Below the pieces are notes generated by a model. It saw only the letters and a list, made by a program, of their open reading frames with translations, did no database searches and had not been told where the DNA came from. Both the position numbers and the translations under genes were made by a program. From NCBI GenBank assembly GCA_003427395.1, contig BFEA01000002.1, forward strand, positions 3,391,309 through 3,455,308: a stretch of 64,000 bases of DNA, written 5' to 3'. How positions within the stretch are numbered: the first letter of the stretch is position 1; the number at the start of each line of letters is the position of its first letter. The stretch comes from Chara braunii (lineage: Eukaryota; Plantae; Charophyceae). Shown here in pieces: positions 6,453-43,567 of this stretch.

Positions 6453-7974
6453 TGTAACGCCCCACCTCACGCCCAGCGTGACTTCCTGATCGGAGTGGGA
6501 CGGGGACCCGGAAGTGCGAAGAAGGGGTTGTGCCAAGGAATTTAGGAAAGTGAGGGTGGAGTCTCAGATCGGAACTGAGATCTCCTGTGGCAAGTTTCAG
6601 GGGTAAAAGTGCAAGAGGGGATATGCAGGTCGGTCCTTGGTGCTTTAATCCTTATGAGAAGGAAGGTCAACCACCTCTCGTGGTTTATGCACAGCGGGAA
6701 AACTGCAGATGTCGTGCAGCATACGACAGATGGTCAAAGTTTTCGGGATACTCTTCTACAACCCCAGTGGCAAGAGATCTAAACACTCTTGCATTCTCGA
6801 ACGAAATCCCAACAACATTGCCCCTGCCAACGAACCCCAATTTTGTCAGCTTAAACCCAAAAATGGAAATCGCCATCGCCTTTGGTTTCGCCTTCAGGGT
6901 CGGTCGCGCACTTCGGCCAGTTGTCGGCGCCGCTCGTAGCAGGCTTGGGATTCCACCGAGGCGGGCCGTAAACGGAGTCTGTGCACTCGCCGCTCAGCTT
7001 CGGTTCGAGTATGTCGGGTATTTCCCGAAGCTCGGCGCGCTCGGTAATGCTGACAACCCTCGCATGGCGGGCTGGGTCAATAGCGAGCTATGGAATTCCA
7101 CGGAACCACAGTGAGTTGGTGATAGGGGAGGAGGAGACGGAAGGGAGGGAAGTTGGTGGTGATAACGACGAAACCCGGGGATATATAGTATTGAGTATTG
7201 TCCGTATCTGGGTAGTCTGGGCCTCTAGGATCGTTGGTTATCGCCCAGTGGAAATCCCCCGCGCATAGTCAGTCGTGCTCCGTCAGACAGGCGAATTCCG
7301 GGTTTCTAAAGTTTCCCCGTAATCTAAGTTGTTCGCCTTCCCAATACTCACGATATTCCGGGTCCCTCAGGTTTTCGTAGTCGGACGCCCAAGAGGGAGA
7401 TCTTTCAGCCATGTCCGTTTAGTAAGCCGAATCCCCCGCATCCTTACACGGGGTTAAGGCTGACTCACGAGGACGAGCGCGTACGTGGCGACTCGACTTT
7501 CTCGAGATCGTGATCGTGCGCGCGCGTACTCGTAAGGAACAACCGATTGGTTCCGGTTACGTTCAGCATAAGTACAAATATCCTACCAATCACTACATGC
7601 CATACATGTGACGCAAAAGGACGATCAACTCATCACAGCACTCCCGAGTCTTAACGACGAGACCCCAGACATCAAGACGAGCATTTTCAATCAGTTCTGA
7701 GCGTATAGCTCCCGCAAGTGAACATTGGTTAGAGACGAAACAGGCATCGCAAAACAAAGCTAGAAATCCGAAAAGATCTCTAATAAAAGGGAATTTACAT
7801 TCATTTCATGCATGCATACCGAATAAAATCACAGGAAAATCCGAGACGACGTACAAGCGAAGTTCAAAAGAGGAGGCCGTGACAACAAAATCGGTCATAC
7901 CAGGATTCAAAATTGTAGAGATGAACAGGGGAAGAAGGAGACAACAAAAAAAAAACTTATCCCATACCCACACA

Positions 7975-8033
<59 letters not shown>

Positions 8034-8053
8034 NNNNNNNNNNNNNNNNNNNN

Positions 8054-8130
<77 letters not shown>

Positions 8131-9157
8131 CCCGATACCAACAGTCCATCGCCGCGTATCAACGCAGAGTTGTCACCCTGCTTGGTTCAAGCATGCAAGC
8201 CAGGTTCGCCCGTGCACCACAGTCCGTCGCGGCCCCGCACGTCAACCCCGCATACCTGACACCAGCTCGTCAGATCGCCCAACTCTCGCACTCACTTACC
8301 TTCCAAACTTGCTCGTTAGCCGACCCTCACTGATCGCGCTAACCTTGAAATTCTTAGAGAGACAACTAATCGCGCTTGCTGAATTTATAGTGTGCATGTT
8401 TGCGCGAGGAATACGGGATTAGCCCCAATGATGAGAAAGAGAAGAGAGGAAGTGCCTACGTCTGCATGTCTGGGTCGCGGCGCGGGGGACTGAGCCACTC
8501 TCCACGCATCGATCCGGTCATGCAGGCATAGGAACCAATCAGGTCAGGGAAGAAGGCGTGCATGTGCGGGCGAGCACAAGGCGGGAAGAGGGAAGAACAC
8601 GAAAGGACATCAAGAACGAGAAGATTACAGTTGCAATTACACCGCGCCAAAACATTTACAGTTACGTGCAATATTAAGGCGCAAAAAGAAGTCCAAACAC
8701 AAATCTTGTCGCGGCAAGGTGTGCGTAAGCAGGGAGCGCCACGCAGAAAAATCCAGAAGGCGCCTAAATTCTTATCTTAAGTCCTAATTGCAACGGAAAA
8801 ATTCTAAAGAAAAACAATTCCGAGAGTCCGTGGGGGCTCGACACCAGTTGAAAATTCAAAACGATATTCCCGCGCGATGATCGCACCAAAATTCTCAGTG
8901 CTCACAGCAGAACAAGAAAGCAAAAGCTATGATACAGTTATTCTTCGCGCTCGCTAAGGCGAGGTTCTCCAACCATTGGCACGAGATCTTCCCGACACCA
9001 ATCCGTCATTCTCACCAGAAAACGAAAAAGAAACGAGAACATCCATGCAATTTGTTCGCCCGACCCGCCTGCCCACAGCTCACCCCTTCGACCCGTCGTA
9101 TTTCCCCAAACACCTTCGCGCAGAAAATTGCGCGGTTTCAGAAAGTGGTTCGTCACA
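6453..9157 (-). mobile_element. Solo LTR (2.7 kb) related to the large Gypsy LTR, with 4-bp TSD GCGC
   Basis: Termini tgtaacgcccacctcacgccc...gtggttcgtcaca match those of the 23313-25965 LTR. GCGC at 6449-6452 and 9158-9161. TATA-like motif near 8385. Confidence 0.85.
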
Positions 9158-10573: not shown

Positions 10574-10673
10574 TATGAAGGTCATGTTTCTGTTTTGCCC
10601 ATCTCATGGAGGGGCTGAGAGCAACGAGGAAGAGGCTCGCCGCACCAGTCACCAAATGGATGAAACGCAGAAT

Positions 10674-10708
<35 letters not shown>

Positions 10709-10849
10709 CAAAAAGGCCTCCGCCAGTGCTATTGGTGCTGATAAGAGCAGACACCGCTAGCACCTGGGGGGAGCTCCATCTATTGATGGGGAGCAGCACC
10801 TGCTGGAAAACGGGTCCAGCGTCCCTTACACTGACTGAAATTTGAATTT

Positions 10850-21893: not shown

Positions 21894-23312
21894 ATGCAAC
21901 GAGGAAGCAAGGAGGAAGCAACAAGGAAAGGGCGCAAAATCACCCCCTATCTAAAACATGGGCAAAACAAAAATGCAACGGACGGATGAACAGTGGAATT
22001 GGAATTAAAAAATGAAAAGAAAGAAGTAAGCCTTTCTAGTCTAGAATGCGGCGGATTGGATTGGTCGACACCCCGGCCACGAAACTTCACGTGACGTTTC
22101 AGAAACAGGCCGGCGGGCGGTGGATATCAATCTCCATCCACGGTCTGTATGTGTCACGAAAGGCCGCACGAGATTGAAAACGCCAGCAAGTCATTGTAAA
22201 ACGTCTCTAGAAGGTCCCCACGCCTGGAGGCAAAAAAAAAAGGAGAGAGGTATATGGGCCTTGTTCCACACCACTTGAGTTCAAGAGGGAAGCGAAAAAT
22301 CATTCATCGTTCCACCCCCCCCCCCGGTTAGAGAGGTCCGCGTTGTTTTCACTTTTTTGTGTCCCAAGGGTTAGAGTGATCCGCTTTGTTTTCACTTTTC
22401 TGTGTCCCAAGGGTGCGCCCTTGAATCTCAAGGGCGACACAGGCAAAGGGGCTCGTTCGACACTCCTCGGGCGCGTAAAGTCCCCGAGGAATTGTTCGTT
22501 CCACTTATCCTNNNNNNNNNNNNNNNNNNNNNNNNNNNNNNNNNNNNNNNNNNNNNNNNNNNNNNNNNNNNNNNNNNNNNNNNNNNNNNNNNNNNNNNNN
22601 NNNNNNNNNNNNNNNNNNNNNNNNNNNNNNNNNNNNNNNNNNNNNNNNNNNNNNNNNNNNNNNNNNNNNNNNNNNNNNNNNNNNNNNNNNNNNNNNNNNN
22701 NNNNNNNNNNNNNNNNNNNNNNNNNNNNNNNNNNNNNNNNTTTTGCCCAAGGGACCTCACGAGGTCCCTTGGGCAAAAGGAATCCGCGTTTCACGGAGAG
22801 GAGCGGGCACACGCGTAGAGAGACGTTACAACCGAGAATCTGGATCGGGGTGACACCCTATTGGCTGATGGCCTTAAGCACATTTGTTTTTTTTTTTGTC
22901 CTTTTTTCTTTTTTGACATCGCTCCAAGGAAACGTCCTCGGGCGACGTCCCCGAGGACAGGTGGAACGAAGGGCCCAAATTTCCTTTTGACTAAAAGGAA
23001 TTTTTCCTCGGGCTCCGAGGACGCCCCAAGGAGTGTCGAACGAGCCCCAAAATCGCACTTGAACTCAGGTCACCTCCCGGAGGTACCTTGAGTTCAAGTG
23101 CCAGCGGATACCTCCAGCACTCCAAGTGGGGCCTTTTTTTTGCTCTTCTTTTTTCCCAGCAGGCGATCCTTGTCCAAGATTGGTCAAGCCATGGAGTTCC
23201 TTTTCAAGTGCAGGCTGGGGCTAGGTCCCACTTACACGAATTAAGCGATATTGACCGTAGATCGCAGAGATCAATGGCCAGAATCTCTTAAACCACCAGT
23301 ACTTGGCCCACA

Positions 23313-25965
23313 TGTGACGCGCAACCTCACGCCCGATGCCGTCTTCCATGCGGAGTGTTAGCTGTGCGGAAAAGAGGCCCAGAAAAACAGCAAGTTGGGG
23401 TGCGCCAAGGATTTTTGGAAATTGAGTGTGGGGACACAGACGGAACTGAAATCCCCCGTGTTGATCCGATGAAGCAAGTCGATTAGTTTCGCACGTCGCG
23501 GGCTGCGCGCGCGGACATGGCCCGAAAACAGAAGGATCCAAATTCAATTCAGAAAGTACTGTTGGGCTTCCCACCAGGCTACAGCCAGTCGTTTAGAACG
23601 GAAAGGCTCTGACAAGCTTCGCGTGTCTCGTTTTCGTATCAGATCTCGTCGTCGTTCACTGGTCAGTTCCGAATCCGACGTGGATGGTCTCAGCCAAGTG
23701 GCTCTTTCCTTATGCTCGTCCTCACTCCGTATTCGGTAGCGGAAGCGCTTCGCTTCGTAGCAATTGAAACGCTGGCACTCCGTGCACAGAGTGCGGGGCC
23801 AATGGGGCGCCACTGCCGTGCACGGAATGACGATCAACTCGTTAAACGACAACAATATAAATAGGGTGGAAAGTGCGTATCGATAATGACAAATCCGGCG
23901 TCTACGAACCCTGAACAACGGTTGGCCGGAGGGAAGTAATACTGTCCGCCGATTTGTGCGACGGCTTCTCGTACGTCCCACTCACATACACGTGTCCTTT
24001 CCTCACTGTAGGGAAATGGTCGCGTTGGGATGGGAGATACGGGAGGCATGCGCCCAATCGAAGGGTGTTTGTCAGTCCACATATCAATTAATCACATAAG
24101 AGCAAAAATCATTCATGCGATCCTCAATCTACCCTTCTCGACACACGAGGGAGCAGACACACATCAAATTGATCATGCATAGGGCTAAGGGACCGACCCG
24201 CGACTCAGTTCAATATAACGTTGGTTTCCGGTGCCTTGTTTCTCAAGGTCACCTGGTGGCGTGGCTGCTGATGTCGTGCCGCATAAAGCAGATGGCATGC
24301 GCAGTGCGTTCGGGACCATAGATCTAAACACTGTTATATTCTCGAACAAAATCCCGACGACACTCGTCTAATCAATCCGAAAGGTTCACGCGTCTCTATA
24401 CATGCATTCACTGTGGGAGGTGCGAAAATGAGACATTCACAGGAAAAGATGGATCGCATTGCACAGTACACACGCATCCATCGTTCACAAGACAAGTAGG
24501 CGGGGTCCTTGCGTAGGAGGATTACCCAGGAAACTAATGGAAGAGTTCCGGAAGAAGTTCTTTCACACAAAAACAGGAGGCCGACTTATTCCCATTCAAG
24601 AGAGGGACAATCGTTCAGACACATCGTCTTTCGAGAAGAGAGAAAGAGAGAGAGAGTCGAGGGAAAGAAAGTCCAAAATAGAAGATGGCAAGATCCAGGA
24701 AGAGAAAAGTTCGGTGTCACCGCCGTACACTCACGCGAAAGATAACAATCCGCAACAAAGGTGCATTCGCCGTTAATTCCAATATGGCCCCGGGCCAATC
24801 AACTCAACATCAATCCTCATACCCGTACCGACGATCCCGGCCGTCGCGAGCTAACTCCCACCACTGCGATCGTCACCCCGCTGTCGTAAACTCGACACGG
24901 TTCACCTAGATCCCATAGTCCATCGTGGCGATTCAGCGCGCAACCGGCCAGTCTATCGTCAGCCCGACAGGACTTTCCGAATCACTTTAAATACTCTGCC
25001 TAGCCACTGCTTCCCGGAAGCTGGCTTCAGAGTCGAGAACGTAAGAGAGATTTGCGGGCGCGCTTGCGGGTTTTATAGTTGCGAGAAAGGAGATAGAAGA
25101 GGGAGAGAACGACGGGAAGGCGGGGGTGTAGGAGGAGAAGGAGGAGAAGACTTTGAGAAGAGCGCTCCGAGAACGCCATGTTGATCCCTCGGAACTCAAG
25201 GTTCAACCAATCAGATTCGTCGTGCGATAGGAAGGTCCTATCGATCCGCGCACGTGATTGATGAGCGGGAGTTATCGGAGGATCGACTNGGAGTCGTACG
25301 CCAGACTCAGAGGGTGAGAAGAGAAAAGGCGNGAGAGGTGGCGCAAGACGGGTCCAAGATTCAGNCGATCAAGAAAGGNAAATGGGCGNGCAAAANAGCA
25401 AGACGGGGGAGGGGGAGAGANGGAGAAACAGTTANGGGGANAGAGAAAGAGGAGGGAGAAGGAAAGGGAGCGNGGGAGGGAGCGATGCGGGGGACAGAGA
25501 GGAGAAAGCTTCTGCATGCGTGGCGCCGTCAACAAAAAAAGAAAGAAAAAGGCACCGAAACAGTTACAGTTTGCTTNTATCCTAATTCAAAATTGAAATC
25601 ANCATATCCGTGCGCGAAAAAGTGACGCGGAAAAAATCCTACGCCTATTTATGTTCANGCGAAATTCCGAGAGTTTTCCCCNACGCGCCCAAGAACACTC
25701 ACACACCCAAAAAGGACACGTCGAAGTTCCGCTTATCCCGGAATTCCCAACCGCTGGGCCCAATTCCCAGTGTGCTCGCTAAGGCGCACGCAAATCCCCA
25801 TGTATTTCCCGACTTTGCAAAAAAGAAAAACAGAACTCAGCAGTCGAAAAAGGGAAAATGCGGCACCCGAAAGCAAGAAATCAAAAACGGGTTTTTCCTG
25901 GGGTTGGTAATAAGCAAAAGAAAGGGTACGAAAGGTGGCACGGGGTCGTGAAGTGGTTCGTCACA
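23313..25965 (-). repeat. 3' LTR
   Basis: Direct repeat of 34137-36800, plus 9 extra terminal bases at 23313-23321. Confidence 0.95.
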
Positions 25966-26331
25966 TATGTGACGCGTAGGGGGTTCCAAAATTATACGAT
26001 CTCCTGTTTGCATGTCATGGCGAAAAGAAACAGAGTGATGCATGAGGAACCAAACGTATCATCAGAGCAGAAAGAAGTACAAGGAACGATAACTGGGCCG
26101 TGGATGAGATGGCGACAACATCCGTGACAAGATCCCTGTAGCCCTGTCATATGCAACCCTTTGCCTCGTGGAGATCGTCCAGGTGACGCCATCATGGTCC
26201 TCCTGATCCCCGTGTACTCCGCACCCCTGCTCGTTGCCGTCCGTCGAATCAGCGCGTAGGTTGACGTCATCATTGATGGAGTGATCTTCGCGAAGCTTAC
26301 TGATTCGTGCCGATGAAGAAGTGAATGGGAT

Positions 26332-26964
26332 CTACCACCGCCTAGTTGGAATAGGCCAGTAGAGGCAGTACGTGCCGGGGATCTCGCGGGGATGACGGGG
26401 TGGGAGTGGGGGTAGGAAGTGATTCATCCCTTCCATCGTCATCGGGAGTTCCTCGTATCGGATGATCCGGTGGAAGCGGGGGAAATGATCGCCACTGCGA
26501 GGGAGAGAAGCGAGGTAGTCGTGATAGAAGGAGGAGAGGGTGCGAAAAAGCGCCGCTCGATAGACCTCGAAGTGGCGGCAAGCGGGGATTGTCCCCGTGG
26601 CAATGTAGTAGACCTCTACTACGTTGGATTGCTCCCATGCAGCGCTGAACAGCAGGAGATGCCAGCAAAACGCGGGAGCAGCAGACTGAAGGGAGGCGTG
26701 GGGGTGGCCGGTGGCGAGTAGACGGGTAGAATAGAAGTTGCGGAAGAGATGGGGATGGAAGGGATGGGGAGAGAAGGTGACGGGGGTACGGATCTGCTCG
26801 AGGGTGAGGAAATTAAGGGGTCGGCGGGACAACGTCCGAGGACGAAGGCCTATCGCCCGCATCGGCACGTGGGCGAACTGAGGGACGGGTGGGGCTGGAG
26901 GAGGAGGGGGATCGGCGCCATCTCCGTCGCGCGGTACTTGAGGTGGCGGCTGCAGGGTCGCCAT
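26332..26964 (-). CDS. Accessory ORF of the Gypsy element, unknown function (210 aa)
   Basis: ATG-initiated open ORF, sense to pol, between integrase and the 3' LTR. Pro-rich N-terminus followed by a globular-looking region. Confidence 0.5.
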   Translation of the reverse strand: MATLQPPPQVPRDGDGADPPPPPAPPVPQFAHVPMRAIGLRPRTLSRRPLNFLTLEQIRTPVTFSPHPFHPHLFRNFYSTRLLATGHPHASLQSAAPAFCWHLLLFSAAWEQSNVVEVYYIATGTIPACRHFEVYRAALFRTLSSFYHDYLASLPRSGDHFPRFHRIIRYEELPMTMEGMNHFLPPLPPRHPREIPGTYCLYWPIPTRRW

Positions 26965-27571
26965 CTTCTTCTTTGTCGTCGTCGTCGATCACCACTTCTT
27001 CTGCCTTCGGGTAAAAGGCATAAGGGATGATCTCGTACGGCTTCAGATACTCCTGCCGCGATGGTAGCGTATCCTCGTCCCTAGGTTCCTCCAATCACGA
27101 AGTCCACTGAAGGTACGGATCTAGGGATCGCTCGAAAATGTACGGAGCAGGACTGTTATCACTCTGAAAGTAGATGTGGGGCGAGAGATCGTCCGCCAAT
27201 TGCACGATCGGTGCAATGAGCTCCTGTGCAATCAACTGACGGCGACCCGGTTGTACCGATCCAAAGAGGAATCCAATAAGATCTCCTTCCGTGTTAGTCC
27301 TCCAACCCTGTATGATCAACAACTCCGGATTCTCGATCCACGTGGGATGCTCGCTAGTGCCTATCCACGTCACCTGTACTCTGGCCAAGCAAGAGGACAG
27401 CTCAAAAGTTTCGCGCCACAATCGCCAATATCCAGGAATGATAAGAGGGACTGAAAGAGGCTCAAACGAGAAGGAAAGAGAAGGGTGAAGATCGGATTGC
27501 CAGAAGAAGGTGGGGAAGAGAGAGGGGAGACCAAAGGTAGAGAGAGGAGCGAGACGAGCAGCGTGGTTCAT
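26813..27571 (-). pseudogene. Accessory ORF of the Gypsy element, interrupted by an in-frame stop
   Basis: ORFs 27095-27571 and 26813-27094 are contiguous and in frame (LIIQGWRTNTEGDLIGFLFG...YLQWTS*LEEP...), ending in an acidic stretch. Confidence 0.5.
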
Positions 27572-28050
27572 TGGGGACGGGGGAAGGGGACGATGGTCGG
27601 GATCGCAACTGGCCGCTCGCGCGGTGATCGGCGAATACCGTCAAGATCCGATGCAACGATCGGGATGATGTTATACCCTTCCCAGGCGAGGACGTGCTGC
27701 CACACGTTGGACACTTGCTCCGTCCACTCGCGCAGCGAGGCCAAGATCGCGGTATGCCTCAGCGGATTGAACGAGCTGATGTCGCCGGTGAGTCCCGCCA
27801 CTGTGGTGACGTGGCTCGTTCTGGGACCCGCTCGCTGATGAACTGTGGTAACCTCCGCGAACAATATTGCGCGAGGACTTCCTTCGATTCGAAACGTGGC
27901 AACGACACAGATGCCTTCGTCGCAAAAGAATCGCATTAAACGCCGAAGATCCGTATTGAGCCGAGGGTGACAAACTTGCCGAATCCCTGAGATGTGTCCG
28001 CGTGGCTGCAACAGCTGAATGTCAAGAACCCGCTCCGTGATAAAACTCAT
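27568..28050 (-). CDS. Accessory ORF of the Gypsy element, unknown function (~160 aa)
   Basis: ATG at 28050 (MSFITERVLD...) preceded by a CU-rich tract; the frame stays open. Confidence 0.5.
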   Translation of the reverse strand: MSFITERVLDIQLLQPRGHISGIRQVCHPRLNTDLRRLMRFFCDEGICVVATFRIEGSPRAILFAEVTTVHQRAGPRTSHVTTVAGLTGDISSFNPLRHTAILASLREWTEQVSNVWQHVLAWEGYNIIPIVASDLDGIRRSPRERPVAIPTIVPFPRPQ

Positions 28051-28199
28051 GGCGAGGTCGGACAGGAGGATGAAGGACAAGAGGGAGAAAGACGGGAGAA
28101 AGTTAGATCGTCGTCGTTCTCCTCGCTTTCCGAGGAAGAAGAGGGAGGACGATCGGAAGGAGGAAGAAGACAGAGGTAGGAGGTATGCCGGACGATGGG

Positions 28200-29682
28200 G
28201 ACAGAGTTATGGCTGGCACTAGCCTCAGGCGAGACGCGCACCGTGTTAGCGCCGTTGGGTCCGAGTTCGACAACGCGAAAACAACCAGAGTACTTGGGAG
28301 TGAGTTTCCGATCGCGTGCACATTTACGTACCTGCACTAGGTCCCCTAATTTATATTGGTACTGGGGCCCAGCGTTTCCATTCCGGGCTTCGTAGCTACG
28401 GACCTATCTACCGTGGGCCAGCTCGGTCATCCTTTGTCTTTTTTGGGCTAGCTTCGGAACGGCCCGTTCCATCAAATCGATGTACCTTTTGGCCTTGGCC
28501 TTGAGGGCCGCACGCGTGTCTCTACCCCCTGCTTCGGCAATTTTCGAGTTGCCCCGGTAATCGACACAGGGGAGGTTATTAGTTCGAAGCTGAAAGGGGG
28601 TAAACCCTGTAGACTCGAGAGGGGTGGCCCGGTGGATCCCGACGATCTAATACACGATTTCGGGCCAAGGACGCGTGTCGTGTGCCGCTAAGTTCCTGCG
28701 AAGGGCGGTTTTAATCATACGGTTGGNCCGCTAAGTTCCTGCGAAGGGCGGTTTTAATCATACGGTTGGCATTCTCGGCCAACCTGTTCGACTGGGACAC
28801 ATGGGGTGCCGTATGTCGGAGCATGACGCCCCTTCGCGCAAGCAGTTCTTCTACCTCACCTTTAAATTCAGATCCATTGTCGGTTAGAATTTCTTCCGTA
28901 TCTAGATGGGTATAGAGGAACCGTTCGATGTACGTGGCTACTTCTGCGGCTCTTCGGGTCTTACAGGGATAGACCTCGATGTACTTGGAAAAGTGGTCGC
29001 TATCAGCGGCACAGACCGGACAGTTAGCGACAATGTATTTGGCATCACCTCGTATATTGGACCAGAACCATCGATTCTGGTCTACAGTTGCCTCCGTGAC
29101 ATGTATCGCGAAATGAGCGGCCTGTTCCTCGTGAGAAAATCGGATCCAATCGTATCTCTGGAAGGGATGGGGAACTGTCAGCCACGAACCGGATCTGTCA
29201 GTTTTACACTTTTCCAAATGATCGTTGATCCATCGATAGTCCCGAGATCTATCGGTCGCCCTACGTCTGTCGTGTTTGGTGAGGTGACCCAATGATAATC
29301 CCGCTAATTTCGCCAATAAAATTTTATCCGTCCAGACTTCCGCTCGTCGGTATTTTTCGTCGTATTCGGGACCGTCCGTATGGGCGGCCTCGAATCGAAC
29401 CTCCATGGGGAGCTTGTTCGTTCTACACAGGGGGCACCTCCAATCCTTGCTACTCGTTCGATATCGAACGCAGACCCCGTGCGCACGATTGACACACGTG
29501 GCACATTCTACCCAATCGACAAACCCAGTTTCGAAGGGATGACAGTCAACCCCATAAACCCGTGCAATACACGTGCAAAAATAACATAATTTATTGGGGA
29601 GGGTGGCAAAGAAAGCGGAGGATGTGAAAGGGGCAGAATTAGCGGGAGATGAAGGGGTTGCGGAGGCGAGTTGAGTAGCCAT
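28200..29682 (-). pseudogene. Retroelement integrase with N-terminal PHD-like finger (degenerate)
   Basis: Cys/His cluster C..C...WVECATC...H..C...WRCPLC. HHCC finger (H...H...CPVC). Core motifs DHFSKY, TDNGSEF and AEN. GPY/F-like tail LTPKYSGCFRVV near 28300. The segment carrying the first catalytic Asp appears deleted. Confidence 0.85.
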
Positions 29683-29742
29683 GATGTTAGAGGAGGAGAG
29701 GATGCAGGGAGGGTAGATCAGAACAATTAGTCCTCGTGCCAC

Positions 29743-31863
29743 TTATTGCTTCGATAAGATCTCCACTTGGCCGTACCGAGGTCCGATCTCCTGTTCAGGT
29801 TCGTTCCACGGAATCACCTCCTCAGCCTTTGGAACCTTCTCAGACCGATGCAGATGTGTCAGCCCGTCCGCATTCCCGTGTCTCTCGTGCTTCCGATGGC
29901 GGATGTCAAAGTCCATGCTCTGCAACACCGTTGCCCATCGCCCGATCATGCCCGAGTAATTATTCGACTTCTTCAGAGCCAACAGGGGCTCATGGTCAGT
30001 TACCAGGGTGAATTTTCGCCCGTACAGGTAAGCACGAAAGTGAATGATTCCCCAAAGAGCCGCATAGCATTCTCCCGTCGGAGTAGCGTAGTTGCGCTTG
30101 CAGGCGGGTACTGATTTGGACGCATACTCTACGACATTCTCGAGTCCGATTGGTCCCACCTGGGCAAGGATTGCCGAAATCGCCTCTGGCTGCCAGTCGG
30201 TGATGAGAACAAAAGGCTTTTCGGGATCCGGTCTTATAAGGACGGGAGCCGAAATGAGAGCAGCCTTGAGTTTGGAAAACGCTTGATCGCACTTCGGCGT
30301 TCAGATCAACGGCTGATCCTTGCGTAGGAGATTTGTGAGGGGTCCCGCAATCGCTCCGAAGCCCTTGATAAATCTTCTGTAATACGAGGCTAGGCCCAGA
30401 AAGGCGCGAACTTGCGTGATAGTGGTAGGCATTGGCGCGTCCCTGACATCTGCCACCTTATGCGGCTCCGGTTGGAGTCCCTTGTCTGTCACCACGTGCC
30501 CCAGGAAAGAAATGGTGGTGAGGAAAAACTGACACTTCTCAATCGCCACCTTGAAACCTGCATCTCGTAACGCATGCAGTGCCCACTCGATGTGCTGCAC
30601 GTGTCCCTCGTAGGATCTCGAATACACCAGGATGTCATCCATGTACACAATCACGCAGTAGTTGATGATGCTCTGCACCAGGCGAGTCTTCCGTACGAAA
30701 TTATGAAAAGCCATGTTCATGGCCCGCTGAAAAGTCGCAGGGACGTTGCAGATACCCATCGGACATCGAATCCACTGCCATGTACCCTCGAAAAGCACAA
30801 ACGCCGTTTTCGGACGATCTTCTTCTCGAACAAGAAGATGATGAAACCCATGGCGAACATCAAACTTGCTGAAAAATCGAGCACTCCCAATCGCATCTAA
30901 CAACTCATCAATCCGGGGGAGGGGATACACATCTTTGATCGTGATATCATTCAATTTTCGATAATCAATGCAAATGCGAATCCCTCTAGCCTTCTTAGGT
31001 ACGATTACTACAGGGAAAGACCATGGACCTATAGCAGGTTCGATCCATCCATTAGCTTCGAACTCCTTAATCCGCTGAAAAGCGGCCGCTCTTTGAGCTG
31101 GCGAGTATCGATAGGGAGCGCAGCTAATAGGCGGATGATCTCCTGTGAGGATGGCATGCTCAGTTACATTAGTTAAGTCGATATCATTGTCATGCACGCT
31201 CAACACTTTTGAGTAACCATTTAACACACAGATTAACGACTCCCGGAGTTCCGCGGGAACGTGACTCGGGAGCGTGATCGTCGATTCCCTGAACATCTTA
31301 AGGGGGATATCGATCCAATCAACTGGCCGCTCCCGCCGCTCATTGACACTAGAAAAAACGGAACTACTGGTGCAAACAGAGAAGACAGTTGCTATCATCT
31401 GGGACTCAGCGGGGCTGATCATCTCCGTTTCTTTAGTTTCAGCATCGGTTTCTGAACCGACCGAGGTCGGTTCCACAGGTAGCCCGATTAGATCCGTCAT
31501 TTCTTGCATTAGATTAGGTACGTCACTTACCGGTGCTTCCGCCTCTTGTTTAATCAAGGCAATGGTGACTCCAGTCGTTAATAACGATCTGGGCGGAAAA
31601 GCAGAGACATCCAAATACTGTTCTGTTTGCTGATAGCGCGTTCGTAAGGAAAGAGTTCCCTCGTACAAGGTGCGAGGGGGTTCCAAATCATCAGCCAGAT
31701 CGGAGACTTGTAATATAGGTTCCCCGAGGACTGAAGGACTGACCTGGGCTGTTAGAGGTGTGAATGCACTGTCTTCAGAATCCACGTGGAAGCTCCGAGC
31801 GGTGTCGGGGCACACTCGAAATTCTTCAGGGGTTTCATGTTCGAAAAGTTCAACTAGATGTTT
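29743..31863 (-). pseudogene. pol: Reverse transcriptase-RNase H portion of pol
   Basis: RT motifs CIDYRKLN, YPLPRID, PATFQR and YMDD. RNase H motifs ECYAALWG, TDHEPL and NADGL. In-frame stops at 31864 and 30301. Confidence 0.95.
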
Positions 31864-34002
31864 TCATTCCTCTTCACTGGGTATCTCTTCTTCGTATTCT
31901 CGCTCCCTGATTCCATCCCCGAGGTTCGAGGGGGAGCACTCCTCGGGATCAATGTATCGAATCATCCCGATGGGAGCCGAGTTAGGGACCCGTTTTATCG
32001 TTCGGGTGGAAACCCGCAAAGGAACAGTCTGAGGCTTTCTCCCAGTTTGTGTAAGCACCAATTGTTTCGAATCGAAATGCAGACGTGCGCCCACCGCTGT
32101 CGCCCAGGGTAATCCCAACAACACAGAATAGGAACGTACATCTATTACGAGCGCGTTAACAAGGACGTGTACTCGTCCCACCTTTACGGCTACGTTATCG
32201 ATAATACCTACGATGTTCATTGCTTCCTCGTCGGCAGAGACATAGTTGTCTTTGCCAGATTGAGAAAGAATGGATCCAAGTCGTCCCGTCTTTTTGACAG
32301 TATCCAATGATATGGCCACGACAGAAGACCCTGTGTCAATAAGGGCATTAAACGGTTTGCCCCACACTTCACAGTCACATTCCGCACTTTTCCATAGGAC
32401 CGGCCGAGCTCGTACGAAGTGGTCCTTTTCTACTAACGAGATTGCTGCTATACGTGCGGCTTTGGGTTCAGGTTCTTTTGAGTCTGGCTCAGGAGGCGCA
32501 ACTTCCTCACCTTCCTCCTTCTTCTTCATCATCCGTTGTATGCGCTGATAGGTGAAGCGCTTTTGATTTTTCTGGCAGTGTTGTAAAAATTTATCGTTCG
32601 CTGCTTCAGATATGGTAAGAAGATGTCCTACTGGGATAGGAACACGAATATCTAATTGCTTGAGCGTTTTCAGTACATCAATATCCCCTGTCCGAAACTG
32701 TGGTCCGGGATTGGACTCGCGATCGACCCATTCGAGATCATCTTGGGCCGATCGGATCGCTCCGATCATTCCGGCAAGATGGAGATACTCGAGGGGATCG
32801 ACCACGTCAGCCGCGTCAGAGGAAGAAGTTCCTGATGTTGACGCCATTGTCGTCGAAGGGGAAGGCTGCTCCGGGGCGTATGCCACGGGTTCTCTTCCCG
32901 GGGCCTTGTCCATCAGAGCGGCCACTCGTCCTTGATTAAGGGTGACGGGGGCAGCAGCATGGGGAGGCTGATTAGGTTTCGGCTGCGGACAGTCTCGGGC
33001 GAAATGCCCGGGCTGTTTGCAGTTGAAACACTCGATCTTTCCTGCCGGATTAGCTAGATGGGGAAACTGAGGGGCGAATCCTGGAGCAGGTGGAGCAGGT
33101 AAGAGTGGAAACGATGCAGGGGCAGGCCGAGCAGGAGCTGGGTTAGGCTTAATGAGCCTGCTCATTATCTGTTCCATTCGTTCCATGTGAGCGGCCTGCA
33201 TTTGGATCAAGTTGCTCACCCATTCGGACTGCTTGGTAGTGACCGTATGGATCATCTGGGCAAGATGCAAATTGGTTATGGCGGGCGAGGGGGATTCGGA
33301 TGGAGTTCCGCTTCTAACAGCTGCGATTGATTGATTCACCGGGGGAGAGGGAGGAGAAGCAGCCAGGATATCGGAGACGATTCCGCCGGGAAGGTCATGG
33401 TCGGGGCGGGGATAGAACCGTTCGACCGCCTGTAGCCACGATCGCCTTTTGGCCGTTACATCCCGTATGGTATCTGTAATATCCTCATCTCCCTGGCTGA
33501 TATATTTTTTTGTATCAGCCAAGTCTAGCTCCAACGCTTTACCGATGATAGCCAATAACTGGGTTGTTTTCGGCGGAACCTTTTTTTTCTGCAGTTTCCC
33601 TTTCAAGGTCGGACTTCGAAGGTGATCAATAAACAAGTCTCGAGCGGAATTCTCGTCTCGCCCGGATTTGTCCAACGTGGTTTGAAATCGATCGACGAAA
33701 TCGGGCAATAATTCTCCTGGTCCTTGTGGTCGATTTTTTAGTACATACCAGGCGGCATCTTCACTAACCGTATCGAATCGAGCCAAGAATGCTCGCTTGA
33801 AAGTATCCCAATCTCCCCATGTATGCTTTCTGAACCAGTCGTGCAATGTATTGCGGAGTAGCAATGTCATAACACAGGGAAGATCGGTTGCGCTGTAGTT
33901 TTGAGCTTTGACAGCTTCCAGCCAAGCCTCGGGATGGGTATGGTTAGGGAAGAAGGGAAAGGGGGCAGGGATGCTAACGATCACCCTAGTACCGTCCACC
34001 AT
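31864..34002 (-). CDS. gag: Gag with CCHC zinc knuckle plus aspartic protease, in frame with RT across one stop
   Basis: CFNCKQPGHFARDC knuckle; protease motifs ALIDTGSSV and VLLGLPW. Confidence 0.9.
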   Translation of the reverse strand: MVDGTRVIVSIPAPFPFFPNHTHPEAWLEAVKAQNYSATDLPCVMTLLLRNTLHDWFRKHTWGDWDTFKRAFLARFDTVSEDAAWYVLKNRPQGPGELLPDFVDRFQTTLDKSGRDENSARDLFIDHLRSPTLKGKLQKKKVPPKTTQLLAIIGKALELDLADTKKYISQGDEDITDTIRDVTAKRRSWLQAVERFYPRPDHDLPGGIVSDILAASPPSPPVNQSIAAVRSGTPSESPSPAITNLHLAQMIHTVTTKQSEWVSNLIQMQAAHMERMEQIMSRLIKPNPAPARPAPASFPLLPAPPAPGFAPQFPHLANPAGKIECFNCKQPGHFARDCPQPKPNQPPHAAAPVTLNQGRVAALMDKAPGREPVAYAPEQPSPSTTMASTSGTSSSDAADVVDPLEYLHLAGMIGAIRSAQDDLEWVDRESNPGPQFRTGDIDVLKTLKQLDIRVPIPVGHLLTISEAANDKFLQHCQKNQKRFTYQRIQRMMKKKEEGEEVAPPEPDSKEPEPKAARIAAISLVEKDHFVRARPVLWKSAECDCEVWGKPFNALIDTGSSVVAISLDTVKKTGRLGSILSQSGKDNYVSADEEAMNIVGIIDNVAVKVGRVHVLVNALVIDVRSYSVLLGLPWATAVGARLHFDSKQLVLTQTGRKPQTVPLRVSTRTIKRVPNSAPIGMIRYIDPEECSPSNLGDGIREREYEEEIPSEEE

Positions 34003-34125
34003 TGGTATTGCTGGTGCAGCCGCACTAGACTGAGACCGGGTTACTGGGCGATCTCAACGAGCTAGTTGAGGGTCTCTCCTACCTCTCGCCAGTTCGACTT
34101 ACTATCATCAGAACCGACACGTGTC

Positions 34126-34138
34126 GGCTCCGATACCA
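34126..34138 (-). promoter_or_regulatory. Primer binding site, tRNA-iMet type
   Basis: TGGTATCGGAGCC directly after the 5' LTR (canonical TGGTATCAGAGC). Confidence 0.9.
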
Positions 34139-36800
34139 ACCTCACGCCCGATGCTGTCTTCCGTTCGGAGTGTTAGCTGTGCGGAAAAGAGGCCCAGAAA
34201 AACAGCAAGATGGGGTGCGCCAAGGATTTCTGGAAATTGAGTGTGGGGACACAGATGGAACTGAAATCCCCCGTGTTGGTCCGATGAAGCAAGTCGATTA
34301 GTTTCGCGCGTCGCGGGCTGCGCGAGCGGACATGGCGAGAAAACAGAAGGATCCAAATTCAATCCAGAAAGTACTGTCGGGCTTCCCACCGGGCTACAGC
34401 CCGTCGTTTAGAACGGAAAGGCTCTGGCACGATTCGCGTGTCTCGTTTTCGTATCAGATCTTGTCGTCGTTCACTGGTCAGTTCTGAATCCGGCGTGGAT
34501 GGTCTCAGCCGAGTGGCTCTTTCCTTATGCTCGTCCTCACTCCGTATTCGGTAGCGGAAGCCCTTCGCTTCGTAGCGATCGAAACACTGGCACTCCGTGC
34601 ACAGAGTGCGGGGTCCAATGGGGCGCCACTGCCGTCCACGGAATGACGATCAACTCGTTAAACGACAACAATATCAAGTAGGGTGGAAAGTGCATATCGA
34701 TAATGATAAATCCGGCGTCTACGAACCCTGAACAACGGTTGGCCGGAGGGAAGTAATACTGTCCGCCGATTTCTGCGACGGCTTCTCGTACGTCCCACTC
34801 ACATACACGTGTCCTTTCCTCACTGTAGGGAAAAGGTCGCGTTGGGATGGGAGATACGGGAGGCATGCGCCCAATCGAAGGGTGCTTGTCAGTCCACATA
34901 TCAATTAATCACATATATCCAGAGGCATCATTAAGAGCAAAAATCATTCATGCGACCCTCAATCTACCCTTCTCGACACACGAGGGAGCAGACACACATC
35001 AACTTGATCATGCATAGGGCTAAGGGACCGACCCGCGACTCAGTTCAACATAACGTTGGTTTCCGGTGCCTTGTTTCTCAAGGTCACCTGGTGGCGTGGC
35101 TGTTGATGTCGTGCCGCATAAAGCAGATGGCATGCGCAGTGCGTTCGGGACCATAGATCTAAACACTGTTATATTCTCGAACAAAATCCCGACGACACTC
35201 GTCTAATCAATCCGAAAGGTTCACGCGTCTCTATACATGCATTCACTGTGGGAGGTGCGAAAATGAGACATTCACAGGAAAAGATGGATCGCATTGCACA
35301 GTACACACGCATCCATCGTTCACAAGACAAGTAGGCGGGGTCCTTGCGTAGGAGGATTACCCAGGAAACTAATGGAAGAGTTCCGGAAGAAGTTCTTTCA
35401 CACAAAAACAGGAGGCCGACTTATTCCCATTCAAGAGAGGGACAATCATTCAGACGCATCGTCTTTCGAGAAGAGAGAGAGAGAGAGAGAGTCGAGGGAA
35501 AGAAAGTCCAAAATAGAAGATGGCAAGATCCAGGAAGAGAAAAGTTCGGTGTCACCGCCGTACACTCACGCGAAAGATAACAATCCGCAACAAAGGTGCA
35601 TTCGCCGTTAATTCCAATATGGCCCCGGGCCAATCAACTCAACATCAATCCTCATACCCGTACCGACGATCCCGGCCGTCGCGAGCTAACTCCCACCACT
35701 GCGATCGTCACCCCGCTGTCGTAAACTCGACACGGTTCACCTAGATCCCATAGTCCATCGTGGCGATTCAGCGCGCAACCGGCCAGTCTATCGTCAGCCC
35801 GACAGGACTTTCCGAATCACTTTAAATACTCTGCCTAGCCACTGCTTCCCGGAAGCTGGCTTCAGAGTCGAGAACGTAAGAGAGATTTGCGGGCGCGCTT
35901 GCGGGTTTTATAGTTGCGAGAAAGGAGATAGAAGAGGGAGAGAACGACGGGAAGGCGGGGGTGTAGGAGGAGAAGGAGGAGAAGACTTTGAGAAGAGCGC
36001 TCCGAGAACGCCATGTTGATCCCTCGGAACTCAAGGTTCAACCAATCAGATTCGTCGTGCGATAGGAAGGTCCTATCGATCCGCGCACGTGATTGATGAG
36101 CGGGAGTTATCGGAGGATCGACTNGGAGTCGTACGCCAGACTCAGAGGGTGAGAAGAGAAAAGGCGNGAGAGGTGGCGCAAGACGGGTCCAAGATTCAGN
36201 CGATCAAGAAAGGNAAATGGGCGNGCAAAANAGCAAGACGGGGGAGGGGGAGAGANGGAGAAACAGTTANGGGGANAGAGAAAGAGGAGGGAGAAGGAAA
36301 GGGAGCGNGGGAGGGAGCGATGCGGGGGACAGAGAGGAGAAAGCTTCTGCATGCGTGGCGCCGTCAACAAAAAAAGAAAGAAAAAGGCACCGAAACAGTT
36401 ACAGTTTGCTTNTATCCTAATTCAAAATTGAAATCANCATATCCGTGCGCGAAAAAGTGACGCGGAAAAAATCCTACGCCTATTTATGTTCANGCGAAAT
36501 TCCGAGAGTTTTCCCCNACGCGCCCAAGAACACTCACACACCCAAAAAGGACACGTCGAAGTTCCGCTTATCCCGGAATTCCCAACCGCTGGGCCCAATT
36601 CCCAGTGTGCTCGCTAAGGCGCACGCAAATCCCCATGTATTTCCCGACTTTGCAAAAAAGAAAAACAGAACTCAGCAGTCGAAAAAGAGAAAATGCGGCA
36701 CCCGAAAGCAAGAAATCAAAAACGGGGTTTTCCTGGGGTTGGTAATAAGCAAAAGAAAGGGTACGAAAGGTGGCACGGGGTCGTGAAGTGGTTCGTCACA
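34137..36800 (-). repeat. 5' LTR
   Basis: Starts TGTGACGAACCAC, contains TATAAAA near 35910, and abuts the PBS. Confidence 0.95.
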
Positions 36801-37135
36801 CATACATCGGTCGTGGGCCCTTAGCGTTAACGCTACGCGTTTCCTGCGCCTCGGCAAAGGCTTGGCATGGCAATGGGGGAGGGAGCTGGTGGCCCCATGG
36901 AAACTGGGCAAAAGGACTACACGATGTCCTGGTGGTGTGCTATGTGGAAAAGCGCGAACAGTGGTAGCAAGGAGGCAAAAAAACAGAAAGGAAAACGAAC
37001 GAGGAAAAAATAAAGATAGATGGTTGATTTCCTTTCTTTTCATTTTTTTTTTTGGGGGGGGGGAAAGAATGTATCTGGCTTCATTCTGCACGGAGTTATA
37101 TGTATCTTAGGGCAATCACGTTCAGATGCTGGTTT

Positions 37136-40100
37136 TTTTTTTTTTTTTTTTACAAGAGAAACTCTGCTCATTCATATTACCACACCAAAAAAGAGGCCGG
37201 GAAAACCTCAACAAACAACCCGGAGCAAATTACTGGGACCATTACCCAGTTTAGGTGCAGGCCTTGGGACACAATGGTGTGGAAGCAGAATGGCCAATTC
37301 CGGACCGCTGCCCTGACACATCCCAACCCTGGGAAACAACAAAAACAAGCCACCAAGGCCCTCGAAAGCTGAACACAAACCAGAAAAAAAAAGACTAGCT
37401 ATTGAAGTAAAGTAACCACTGCTGCCCAACTATTCACAAAAAAAACACACCAATCCCCATCCTATTCTTTCTAATCCTACATTAGTAGTTTACCCTAATA
37501 CATGTGATACACTAATTCGAAAAGAAAAACAATTCATAAGAAAGGAAACAACTAAAACATTGGAGGAGAAAGCTCCATCCTACCTAATTCTCAAATCACT
37601 CCCTCCGCTTTCAATCCCTCTGCCATCCTACCGCGACTGTCCCAACCGAGTGACCAGGTTAGATCCCTTCATCTAGACAGAAAACAACCAAGAATCCAGA
37701 ATCAGTTTATCATTTGCAATAATAGCCAGAGTACCACGGAGGCACTACGTCTGTCTAAACCATGCCAATCCTGTTGTCCGTTGTGATGATTTCAGCACCT
37801 TCCTTCTCCAGTCCGCCTGTATAACCAGTCTCAATTGGGATACAAATGTCGACCGAATCTGCTTGTTGGACCAGTCTTGGTCTTCGAAGACGCAGCTATT
37901 CCTGCTTGACCAAATCACATGGAAGGCCACCGCTCGTATTGCTTGTGCCACATAGCCCCACCCTTTGGCAATGTTCAAATGATCAGGGATGCCCCCTAGC
38001 AGTGACCAGTTCGTGGACCACTGAAAAGAGGATCCTGAGATGCGATCCCATTGTTTGATGACCCAGCGCCATATACGACTGGCTGCAGGGTAGTCCCACC
38101 ACAAATGTACTGTTGATTCAAAAACCCATTGACACCGTTTGCATTTTAGCTCCACTCGTACCCCATGCTCTGCAAGCCATACTGCAGATGGTGTTGCCAC
38201 CAGCGATACTAGCCATGATAGGGATGCTTGTCTTTGATCGGTGATTACCTTAAATTATTTCCAACAACATAGCAGATTATCCTCTATACATTTAGGATCT
38301 AAATCAATCAACTGAGCTCATCTATTACGAGCAACTGCCAGCGGATGTTTCACCAGAGGATTAAGAGTGTATCCCAATTGGAGGGAGTACTCTGTTATTG
38401 GAAGGTTTTGGCCCCCTTGCCCTCTTGCTCTCCACTCCCACCTTGTCGAATCTATTTTCAGGTGAGCAAGTGGTTCCGCATCTGCAAAGACCGTACAATT
38501 CATGGTATCATTCAGGTCCACCTGTTTCATTACTCTTACCTGACTCAGCGCTAAACCGAGACTAGGTTGGTCATTCGTGTCACTCAGGGTAAGAGTCCTG
38601 TCTGGTGAGCAGTCCCAGGACTGGAAGACCCGCTTACCCCCACTATCGATCGAAAGCAGTTTCCATATTCTAGTCTTATCCATCGAGCTGTTTCTATACC
38701 ATGTCCCTGGAGGGTCTGCTGTAACTGCAAATAACAGGTCCTTCCATTTCTCCAGGATAGCACAGATAATTGCATCCCTTCGATCCTGTAGATACCAAAC
38801 CGCCCCTAGTGAGGAGCGGAGGGATCTTGCCGACTTCCATGATCCAGTTAACTCATCCCAAATGTCGCTTATTCTTACAAGTCCTCTCTCAATCCAAGAG
38901 CGTCCAAAACTTGTCGCCGTTGAGTCTGTTGAGAACCAGTTCCCGTCTGAGTGTTTGATCATTGGATTTTCAAATATCGGTTGCAACAGAACCTCAGATT
39001 TGGTAGATGGTTCTACCCATGTATCGGGTCTGAGTTTCCTCCAGGCTTTGATTACTGTCCGCCAGAATAGTGACTTAATCACTCTGTTTTGGTAGGAGTG
39101 AAACATCAAGCACGTCCAGACATCAGATGGGCGAGTGAGGTTCCACTCCACAGACAGTATTCGTTCTGCAAGAATGGTCCAATGGTGAGCCTGTGGATCC
39201 GTGATAGCTTTAATTATTCATCTAGCTAGATAAGAATTGTTTTGTCTGGACGGATCTTTTATGCCCAAGCCTCCTTCTTCACGAGGGAGGCAGAGCATCT
39301 CCCATGCAACTTTGGACAGAAACCCATCAGCTTCTTCCGCGTATGGCTTCCAGATGAATTTCGTGGCTCTTCTTTTGACACATGAGTTCAAGTGATTACC
39401 GAATTGGCGAACTGTTCCCACAAACCATAACAAGGCAAATAGTGCACTGTTTACTACAGTTGCTCTTCCAAAAAGGGAAAGGTGCGGGGCTTTACCCCAT
39501 GAGACCGCCATGTGAAGGATTTTTTGCAAGAGGATATCCTCCTAACTATCTGAGCAGTCCTCCAAGGCAATTTGAACGCCAAGGAATCTCTCAGATTCTA
39601 GGCCCTTGAGCCTCTTCATGCCCCACTCCATGACTGGTTGATAGTTTTCGTGCAGAAAGAATAAGGACTTATGCCAATTGACAGAAGCCTCTGATAATTC
39701 AGAGTATTCATCAAGGCAGTCTTTAAGAGCGGACATTGAAGAGGGAGAATTTTCAATGACTGCAAATAAGTCATCCGCAAGGGCCTTAACTTTATATTCC
39801 GTTTGATCTACCGACATACCACGAATCACAAGGTTCTCCCGAATATTATTAAGCAAACCCTCCAGTTGGAGTGCAAAGAGCAGAGAGGCCAATGGGCACC
39901 CCTGTCTCAGAAAGCGAGACAATGGAAAGCTTTGTGAAACTTCACCATTCACGATCATGGATGCTGTGGACAAGGTATACAAACCCTTGACCCATGTGCA
40001 AAAATTGCCACCAAACTTCATCCACTTCAACGTGGTCAAAACGTATGACCTATTGACTCGGTCGTACGCTTTTTCCAGATCAAGCAGAAGGACCGAGAGG

Positions 40101-43100: not shown

Positions 43101-43567
43101 TCGTAACATAGTCTTATCAACTCCTTGACATGCTGTTCTTCATCTCGATTGCCACCCGGATCTGGGGGTGGTGATCTCGCTTCTCGTTGCATAACTACCT
43201 CCTCTTCCATTCGTTCTCCCTTCGGCTGGGATCTGACCTACTGCTTAACACCGTACGTTCTCGACTCTGCACCTTCTAGACACGAAAGTGCAAACAAGCC
43301 TTATCGATTGTGAACGGGACCTCACGGGTACTCACCGTGGCTATCTACGACTCCCTCCCAACAGTGCAGAGTCGGCGCCTCGATCAAGGCAAGGCAACAT
43401 CCATAGCCCCCATCCACCGAGCTGCTATCATGGCGGTAGCATCCTCGGTTGAGTATAGCTCCGTTACCGGTTCGCTAACGCTTGGTCCGAACGCCGTAGC
43501 GACGGCAGAAGCGCTCCCGCGGCCCGCCCGGTCCGCGGCGGGCGTATTTTCCATTCACCTAGTTCCA
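37136..43567 (-). mobile_element. L1-clade LINE with ORF1 and degenerate ORF2, poly(A) tail and 14-bp TSD
   Basis: TSD tcagatgctggttt at 37122-37135 and 43568-43581. Poly(T) on + at 37136-37151. APE remnant at 41042-41455 (SDHKPV). RT at 39542-40666 (DLEKAYD, RQGCPL, ADD). C-terminal Zn motif CKRC...H. Confidence 0.93.
42215..43210 (-). CDS. LINE ORF1 protein with zinc knuckle
   Basis: 331 aa with KPW...FWV and CRRCGVFFHTEDTC knuckle, typical of plant L1 ORF1. The Gln/Pro-rich tail continues in another frame. Confidence 0.8.
   Translation of the reverse strand: MEEEVVMQREARSPPPDPGGNRDEEQHVKELIRLCYEEGVIPPDIDPGEMTIQGREARFKVNVVIDQAKVAWLKEHTVTIIFGEGARFLLKKVKDDIVRAYEDSKXQEGSFEREGFRRGRVKMESPNVVSYVAKSNIIATWLVMKERDELILGSTTYKLELKPWMTKAQLKEQRREEDQLTFWVIAVQVPLDAMLFLDAHIQKAIGPIVRRHPMEPDRLKPSLVNIKFGVDPAARANMKDVIRLETFEGDQLEVKLASSDTPRCRRCGVFFHTEDTCRRNQRSGQQQQDPTAGQQASSRPPYQGHMTSPGISSPSGGPRQEPQPLPQGFQP

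Follow-up and report, generated by a model that had tools for sequence, protein, structure and literature searches.

How does a gypsy retrotransposon acquire its right-hand integrase attachment (att) site if reverse transcription of its own genomic RNA could not place that site there? This question is raised by an element on the minus strand of a 64,000-nucleotide stretch of Chara braunii DNA (contig BFEA01000002.1; this whole stretch is called the window below), where it occupies positions 23313 to 36800. Read directly from the window in the orientation of the element, its parts follow one another in the order A-PBS-body-B-TA-A-TG-B, where A is a 2.65-kb long terminal repeat (LTR), PBS is the primer-binding site, and B is a 9-nucleotide tip with the sequence CGCGTCACA. 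We conclude that the two ends of the complementary DNA (cDNA) of this element likely join before integrase cleavage, and that this joining makes the right integrase site.

Four peculiarities of the element had been pointed out in an initial annotation, and each of them is present at exactly the positions then reported. First, the 5′ LTR runs straight into the PBS and lacks a terminal CA. Canonical LTRs are co-terminal, with the right att site (CA) beside the PBS; the 5′ LTR of this copy instead ends GAGGT. Second, the 3′ LTR has the same GAGGT, followed by TG and by nine nucleotides that are missing from the 5′ LTR. Third, these same nine nucleotides also lie just ahead of the 3′ LTR, separated from its initial TGTGACG by TA (25967-25966), and the resulting junction contains a perfect 16-bp palindrome. 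Fourth, there is no polypurine tract (PPT) before the 3′ LTR: only 8 of the 20 nucleotides preceding B are purines, and the closest purine-rich run (9 of 10) begins 44 nucleotides upstream of the 3′ LTR. The provirus itself is bounded by two long direct repeats and has termini of the TG..CA type (TGTGACG..CGTCACA). With both strands counted, the tip occurs at only two sites in the window (23313-23321 and 25968-25976), and the probability of finding it by chance within 30 nucleotides of an LTR start is about 1.5e-4. The palindrome by itself is weaker evidence, because another perfect 16-mer palindrome is present in the window at 29455-29470.

According to PMC5371799, standard replication begins with a transfer RNA (tRNA) priming beside U5; plus-strand synthesis is primed by the PPT, and the meeting point of U5 and the PBS becomes the end of both LTRs. 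Textbook reverse transcription cannot put B at the right end of this element, because a genomic RNA of this copy would hold B once, before U3. No growth is possible at the 5′ end of a minus strand, which leaves B two ways to the right end: ligation to the left end, or a jump of the plus strand, by its 3′ end, onto the left end of the minus-strand DNA. Both events would bring the two ends of the cDNA together. Of the ways to bring B to the right end, joining these ends is the simplest.

The terminal tip is not a one-off of this locus, which supports the interpretation given in the initial annotation. We aligned public runs to positions 23243-23392, namely contigs of X2, X4 and X5 and RNA reads of X8 (281, 317, 6 and 315 records); X5 is a soil metagenome from a second study, and X2 or X4 may be the source of the assembly itself. 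Loose ends that start exactly at 23313 and lead into unrelated DNA are seen in at least eight X2 contigs (agreement 0.46), at least four X4 contigs (0.52) and at least one X5 contig. Thus, at least 13 contigs from three samples stop exactly at B and then continue into unrelated host DNA, where the junction counts rest on 20 of the 91 loose ends and 22 of the 626 pieces. Nine of these 22 pieces end at 23312-23313, several of them with 100-1000 nucleotides of unique flank. Because the loose ends fall exactly at 23313 and enter unrelated flanks, the right end TG-CGCGTCACA is a trait of the family, and the terminal tip is family-wide and precise. A variable TG or TGG remnant before the tip, which had been predicted, did not materialize: among the aligned contigs no substitution reaches 5% within 23284-23334, and there is no indel anywhere, TG included. 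This uniformity indicates a precise join rather than sloppy end-joining by the host.

Contig depth bears on whether most copies might carry the tip at other junctions as well. Depth falls from 25-28k within the LTR to about 11k at B, a rough halving that would be expected if about half of the LTR ends went elsewhere. In the bin 23308-23312, depth is 1486 (X2) and 4109 (X4), versus 1725 and 5135 for the level of the flanking repeat. When the flanking repeat is subtracted, a conserved continuation into TG accounts for at most about 1100 (X2) and 2600 (X4) per position, versus 6100-10800 and 9100-11200 on B. Set against the expectation for random flanks, the TG continuation is 2254 versus 1920-3374 in X2, and 5137 versus 2835-3487 in X4. 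The depth profile argues indirectly against both tip-PBS and tip-TA-LTR tandems as bulk forms, which agrees with the earlier interpretation.

The flanks of the element carry a short target-site duplication (TSD), which the initial annotation had overlooked. The right flank opens a host repeat that has four further copies in the window, and because both flanks belong to this one repeat, the two ends of the element derive from one insertion. When the left flank is slid along the uninterrupted repeat copy at 48030, 26 of 40 positions match at the 4-bp register, versus 16 or fewer at 12 other registers. Of the remaining three copies, two also match best, though more weakly, at this 4-bp register, and one does not. 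Alternative readings of the TSD as 2 bp (TG) or 5 bp (ATGTG) were ruled out by this register test and by the exact contig ends. The host repeat (core TGGGCCAAGTACTGG) is present in the window at 23250-23310, 5785, 44831, 48030 and 48185, and is covered by contigs to a very high depth and, in run X8, by about 300 RNA reads. Its copies at 48030 and 48185 face away from each other, beside a 294-bp inverted repeat (47668-47961).

A related unit that resembles a solo LTR resides elsewhere in the window and has a perfect 4-bp TSD. The spacing of its tip is 11 nucleotides, as in the main element; the unit spans an N gap, and about 900 nucleotides of its middle cannot be aligned to the main LTR. On two insertions, therefore, we find TG..CA ends and 4-bp TSDs of the kind that a DDE integrase would make. 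A 4-bp TSD is the rule in the Phygy, Selgy and TatI lineages and is frequent in Galadriel, according to PMC6317226. Within the solo unit, the sequence TTTG-CGTCACA at 7607-7620 (minus strand) may mark where a further, nested element terminates on its right, with a TG-plus-tip ending that is shorter. A PBS-like 9-mer at 8140, considered as a second tip-less join, was dropped because it is inside the solo unit and may be due to chance. A third LTR relative (about 2067-4245, minus strand) is truncated at its 3′ side, begins with TGTGACG, and is 69-75% identical in patches.

Its enzymes, PBS, ends and TSD place the element in Ty3/gypsy, although it is missing a canonical PPT and co-terminal LTRs. 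Its Pfam domains follow the gypsy order on the minus strand: gag, protease, reverse transcriptase (RT), RNase H and integrase. The integrase comprises a Cys/His-rich N-terminal part, an H2C2 zinc domain, an rve core and an SH3-like C-terminal part, and its own ATG lies beyond the stop of RNase H. In the assembly the integrase frame is broken at the N at position 28727 by a duplication of 42 bp, and the homologues (four, all of them C. braunii gene models) run on across that N. No chromodomain was found by Pfam at E ≤ 0.1 in the C-terminal frame of the integrase, where only the weak SH3-like MLVIN_C match appears; this mark of the chromovirus branch is thus not seen there. The Cys/His pattern of the N-terminus (29440-29600, minus strand) looks by eye like a plant homeodomain (PHD) finger, with zf-4CXXC_R1 (E 0.09) as the only Pfam match, and could be a chromatin-targeting module. 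No tyrosine recombinase or other recombinase domain was matched by Pfam in eight frames of the element or in 30 relatives of the accessory open reading frame (ORF) x2.

Three accessory ORFs (x1, x2 and x3) follow the integrase. The ORF x1 has no match in Pfam and none in Atlas. There are 122 homologues of x2, and all 120 that are listed are C. braunii gene models. The ORF x2 has no Pfam match, and its predicted fold is of low confidence (pLDDT 51) with no structural match at E ≤ 0.001; a likeness to XRCC4 (E > 1, TM 0.18) was set aside. Stop-start overlaps of the form ATGA at 28047-28050 and 27568-27571 (minus strand) chain the integrase to x1 and x1 to x2, an arrangement that suggests coupled translation of the accessory genes. 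In this particular copy, stops separate gag-protease from RT and RT from RNase H, and another interrupts x2. No Rfam match was found in 23000-37200.

Table 1. Features of the Chara element, its insertion site and the related solo-LTR-like unit, in window coordinates
Feature	Position	Strand	Remarks
5′ LTR (A1)	34139..36800	-	begins TGTGACG; last letters GAGGT, without terminal CA
PBS TGGTATCGGAGCC	34126..34138	-	flush with the 5′ LTR end; 12/13 match to the plant tRNA-Met PBS motif given in PMC10534606
Frame from stop to stop with gag (zinc knuckle) and aspartic protease	31864..34053	-	Pfam PF00098 2e-8, PF13975 1.3e-6
RT frame, gypsy type	30301..31863	-	Pfam RVT_1 1.5e-31
RNase H frame	29743..30300	-	Pfam RT_RNaseH_2 1e-25
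Integrase, separate frame, own ATG	28047..29682	-	Pfam rve 1.7e-6 and Integrase_H2C2 8.1e-5, both under the curated cut-off; MLVIN_C 0.039
Accessory ORF x1	27568..28050	-	start ATG overlaps integrase stop (ATGA); kept in 2 Chara gene models
Accessory ORF x2	26813..27571	-	start ATG overlaps x1 stop (ATGA); this copy has one stop inside the frame
Accessory ORF x3	26332..26988	-	overlaps x2 in another frame; 2 Chara gene models match at 72-92%
Internal tip copy B1 (CGCGTCACA)	25968..25976	-	occupies the usual place of the PPT
att-att palindrome CGTCACA-TA-TGTGACG	25959..25974	.	16 bp, perfect; 2-bp spacer
3′ LTR (A2)	23324..25965	-	97.6% identical to A1; ends GAGGT
TG dinucleotide at LTR/tip boundary	23322..23323	-	tRNA remnant or microhomology as candidate origins
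Terminal tip B2 (CGCGTCACA)	23313..23321	-	right end of the family; loose contig ends begin here
Left TSD copy TATG	36801..36804	-	register test against host repeat copy at 48030
Right TSD copy TGTG	23309..23312	-	one mismatch to left TATG
Related solo-LTR-like unit	6453..9157	-	begins TGTGACG; ends GAGGT-GG-GGCGTTACA; TSD GCGC, perfect, 4 bp

From the 150 best RT representatives, we kept those whose alignment covered at least 240 residues and used the 70 with the highest scores; in the resulting tree of 71 RT domains, the window and 14 relatives form an isolated clade with 71-90% identity, versus 45% or less for all others. The four members of this clade that were looked up are from Chara. 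Summed contig depths over the element of 9,000-113,000, versus about 10-30 for a single contig, show that it belongs to a very high-copy family, although summed contig depth is not equal to copy number.

The observed layout can be accounted for by a five-step route. In the first step, tRNA-Met would prime at the PBS that is flush with the LTR, as is familiar from this family of elements, so that minus-strand DNA begins without an att site. Second, the plus strand likely starts at B or immediately ahead of it, 11-13 nucleotides upstream of U3, and its primer would be something other than a purine tract. Third, the finished cDNA would have the structure B-TA-A-PBS-body-B-TA-A-TG. Fourth, its right end would join its left end precisely to yield A-TG-B-TA-A, either by ligation into a 2-LTR circle or by RT bridging the ends through 2-nucleotide TG pairing to give a nicked circle. 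Fifth, the DDE integrase would cut after CA on both strands of CA-TA-TG in a single step, thereby making two 3′-OH CA ends with 2-nucleotide 5′ overhangs that resemble processed retroviral ends. Insertion with a 4-bp stagger, as suggested by the 4-bp TSDs seen in the window, would then yield the observed A-PBS-body-B-TA-A-TG-B.

Joints made by host end-joining are heterogeneous. Because there are no indels at the join, a precise joining reaction driven by the element fits better than host end-joining. Retroviral RTs are described as clamping 2-nucleotide duplexes across nicks (PMC3035444), and by analogy such clamping is a candidate for the joining step. The TG at the boundary could be microhomology rather than a tRNA remnant, because TA stands in front of the internal B, and GG takes this position in the solo relative.

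Several points weigh against joining of the cDNA ends. The LTR positions 251-1250 are identical between A1 and A2, including 14 N at equal offsets, and therefore the LTR middles were patched from one sequence in the assembly. The LTR parts near the junctions look separately assembled, judged from the A1/A2 differences (two sites in the first 250 nucleotides and about 4% in the last 900). Base-level views of the internal B-TA-LTR junction and of the tip-less LTR-PBS join come from this single copy. Its TSD has one mismatch, and the chance of three or more matches in four is 0.05. There is a small excess of TG continuation over random flanks in X4, and the depth argument is itself rough in that summed contig depth is not copy number. 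Among the contigs listed, there is no LTR-to-PBS contig, probably because private changes of the window's 3′ LTR at 23335-23350 break short matches, and none spans the flank junction of the locus itself. Furthermore, a closed circle would hold two equal palindromes, and thus permuted insertions (A-TG-B-TA-A-PBS-body-B) are expected from cleavage at the second one; none is apparent among the contigs listed. A nicked junction with integrase pre-bound at the ends would explain the choice of palindrome. The Panganiban-Temin circle model of 1984, in which 2-LTR circles are the precursors of retroviral integration, is the retroviral counterpart of the proposed route and has been displaced by linear DNA (PMC11054761). 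Finally, end-joining is deduced here from integrated sequence. The initial claim of integration through joined ends stands in part: DDE-integrase marks (TG..CA ends and 4-bp TSDs) and the simplicity of joining speak for it, and the permuted insertions predicted by a closed circle are not apparent among the contigs listed.

Could the tip have arrived at the right end without the joining of unit-length cDNA ends? Repeated plus-strand strong-stop products or rolling-circle concatemers, trimmed by integrase, or recombination of a tip-less cDNA end with resident copies might all be considered, and there is some precedent in Ty3, where the plus strand is primed anew several times and strong-stop DNA is displaced (PMC5371799); the depths also point to thousands of resident copies as possible donors. 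We nevertheless consider these routes unlikely, since concatemers of 1-LTR circles yield A-PBS-body-B units rather than A-TG-B, and recombination with resident copies leaves unexplained both the internal B-TA and the clean 4-bp TSDs at both ends.

It also seems quite unlikely that the family is an ordinary gypsy one with TG-CGCGTCACA as the end of its full LTR, in which this copy lost 11 nucleotides at the 5′ LTR/PBS join through TG microhomology and gained its internal tip by local duplication or an assembly patch. A B-PBS norm predicts thousands of extra depth at 23311-23312 and a high-agreement loose end, neither of which appears. Such a rearrangement would also need two independent accidents involving the same 9-mer, given the low odds for the internal copy, plus loss of the PPT. 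These requirements have to be set against the fact that a deletion between the two TGs yields exactly the observed 5′ join, that the 3′ LTR alone looks canonical with its 7-bp terminal inverted repeats, that the tip-less join is visible in a single copy, and that the patched LTR middles, the duplication of 42 bp at an N and, elsewhere in the assembly, a palindrome resembling an adapter are all compatible with assembly error.

Very unlikely, lastly, is a scheme like that of PAT, Ngaro and VIPER, in which annealing of the split repeats would provide the template for a circle that a site-specific recombinase, encoded by an accessory ORF or supplied in trans, then integrates at the B/A junction, because, for all that the order A1...B1-A2-B2 is as described for those elements (PMC6681497) and three accessory ORFs of unassigned function are kept across the family, this element encodes a DDE integrase, has TG..CA ends and 4-bp TSDs that fit such an enzyme, shows no recombinase domain in the frames and x2 relatives searched, and has a B of 9-11 nucleotides that is short for annealing when compared with the 57-294 bp reported for VIPER/TATE in the same source.

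Joining of the cDNA ends before cleavage is thus the reading that we prefer. A bolder version, which we put forward only tentatively and would not bet on, is that a charophyte gypsy lineage has made a covalent 2-LTR circle its obligatory integration precursor. Such a lineage would have given up the PPT and the U5 att site, would carry an internal att-att palindrome, and would rely on precise end-joining encoded by the element (an RT clamp or an accessory protein) followed by one concerted integrase cut.

How does this arrangement compare with known systems? With plant Ty3/gypsy elements (Metaviridae; REXdb lineages as presented in PMC6317226), the Chara element shares the Gag-protease-RT-RNase H-integrase order, a tRNA-Met-type PBS, TG..CA ends and a short TSD. 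Unlike them, it has no PPT, its 5′ LTR has no terminal att site, its tip is stored internally, its integrase lies in its own frame ahead of three accessory ORFs, and its RT is at most 45% identical to those outside a close clade whose named members are Chara. Its tRNA-Met-type PBS, scored against a published plant motif, also differs in type from those of Phygy and Selgy, for which PMC6317226 gives tRNA-Trp and tRNA-Ala as primers. Because that survey, as described, demanded TG..CA LTR ends, it could have mis-set the ends of such elements. Beside the PBS, a perfect 14-bp palindrome (34114-34127) overlaps the PBS end and folds with the PBS into a strong hairpin, which may be a dimerisation or packaging signal.

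The repeat order of the Chara element, which opens with A1 on the 5′ side and closes with B1-A2-B2 on the 3′ side, is like that of PAT, Ngaro, VIPER and TATE (PMC6681497). Unlike these, it has a DDE integrase, a gypsy RT, a tRNA PBS, a 4-bp TSD and a 9-11-nucleotide B, and it is not a member of that group because it carries this integrase, yielded no recombinase and has so short a B. For PAT-like elements the replication model is circular, and an internal B-A junction that mirrors the junction of a circle is common to them and the Chara element. In insertion sequences of the IS3 and IS30 families, a DDE enzyme akin to retroviral integrase cuts an abutted junction of the left and right inverted repeats (IRL-IRR) with a 2-3 bp spacer. 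These are DNA transposons, and their transposase makes the junction from chromosomal DNA, not cDNA.

The closest likeness to the proposed cut comes from foamy virus, whose integrase cleaves palindromic LTR-LTR junctions to give both processed ends at once (PMC1180852); there and in HIV-1, the 2-LTR junction offers a palindromic CA-NN-TG as integrase substrate. In those viruses, however, normal reverse transcription makes both att sites and the circle is optional, whereas in the Chara element there is apparently no right att site until the two ends have come together. End-to-end joined circles of full-length cDNA do form in vivo for the Drosophila elements nomad, copia and HMS-Beagle, and 2-LTR circles make up 2.0% (nomad) and 12.1% (copia) of circles, as minor by-products that divert DNA from integration (PMC12951756). 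In the Chara element, by contrast, the joined cDNA is the proposed precursor.

Searches beyond the window gave little that matches. Alignment of public runs to the whole element returned 50,831, 44,008 and 33,893 contigs and 144 RNA reads, of which the top matches did not settle the junctions. A search with the junction pattern gave no match in metagenome contigs or in viral contigs, the viral protein search gave none, and nine matches in prokaryote genomes did not run on into element sequence. An RT-alignment scan of metagenomes retained one locus (L001, a 2.4-kb gag-pol piece) of 62 candidates, and it lacks the junctions. The reading frame across the internal junction has no longer homologues, and none of 274 stored proteins matches across any junction. 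No description of this layout in a gypsy element was found in full-text literature searches, whose coverage excludes the Chara genome paper, its supplements and Repbase, any of which could mention it.

Other features of the window include a 38-bp perfect palindrome (53073-53110) between two copies of a 281-bp duplication; it resembles a Nextera mate-pair junction adapter, so that an artefact of assembly is likely. Another feature, about 2 kb from the right end of the element, is an intronless frame of 1493 codons (16721-21202, plus strand) with many pentatricopeptide (PPR) repeats (Pfam PPR_2 2.9e-68). Degraded elements of the LINE (long interspersed nuclear element) type, with endonuclease and RT frames recognized by eye, are located at 13270-15527, 38318-43237 and 51014-57424 (minus strand).

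Integration of a linear cDNA whose two att sites are both supplied by reverse transcription is among the most conserved rules of retroelement biology, and whether 2-LTR circles are real precursors has been debated since 1984, a matter that bears on the persistence of HIV under integrase inhibitors. A high-copy natural family whose sequence forces end-joining would make the circle question directly testable with a 16-bp substrate that has a 2-bp spacer. There is a practical consequence as well, in that LTR finders that insist on a PPT and on TG..CA for each of the two LTRs will overlook such families or annotate them wrongly. The element links the gypsy and the split-repeat (PAT/Ngaro) ways of making ends. 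If an obligatory circle were true, this charophyte family would be a natural case of the circle model that was abandoned for retroviruses, and the DDE counterpart of the split-repeat retrotransposons that use a recombinase.

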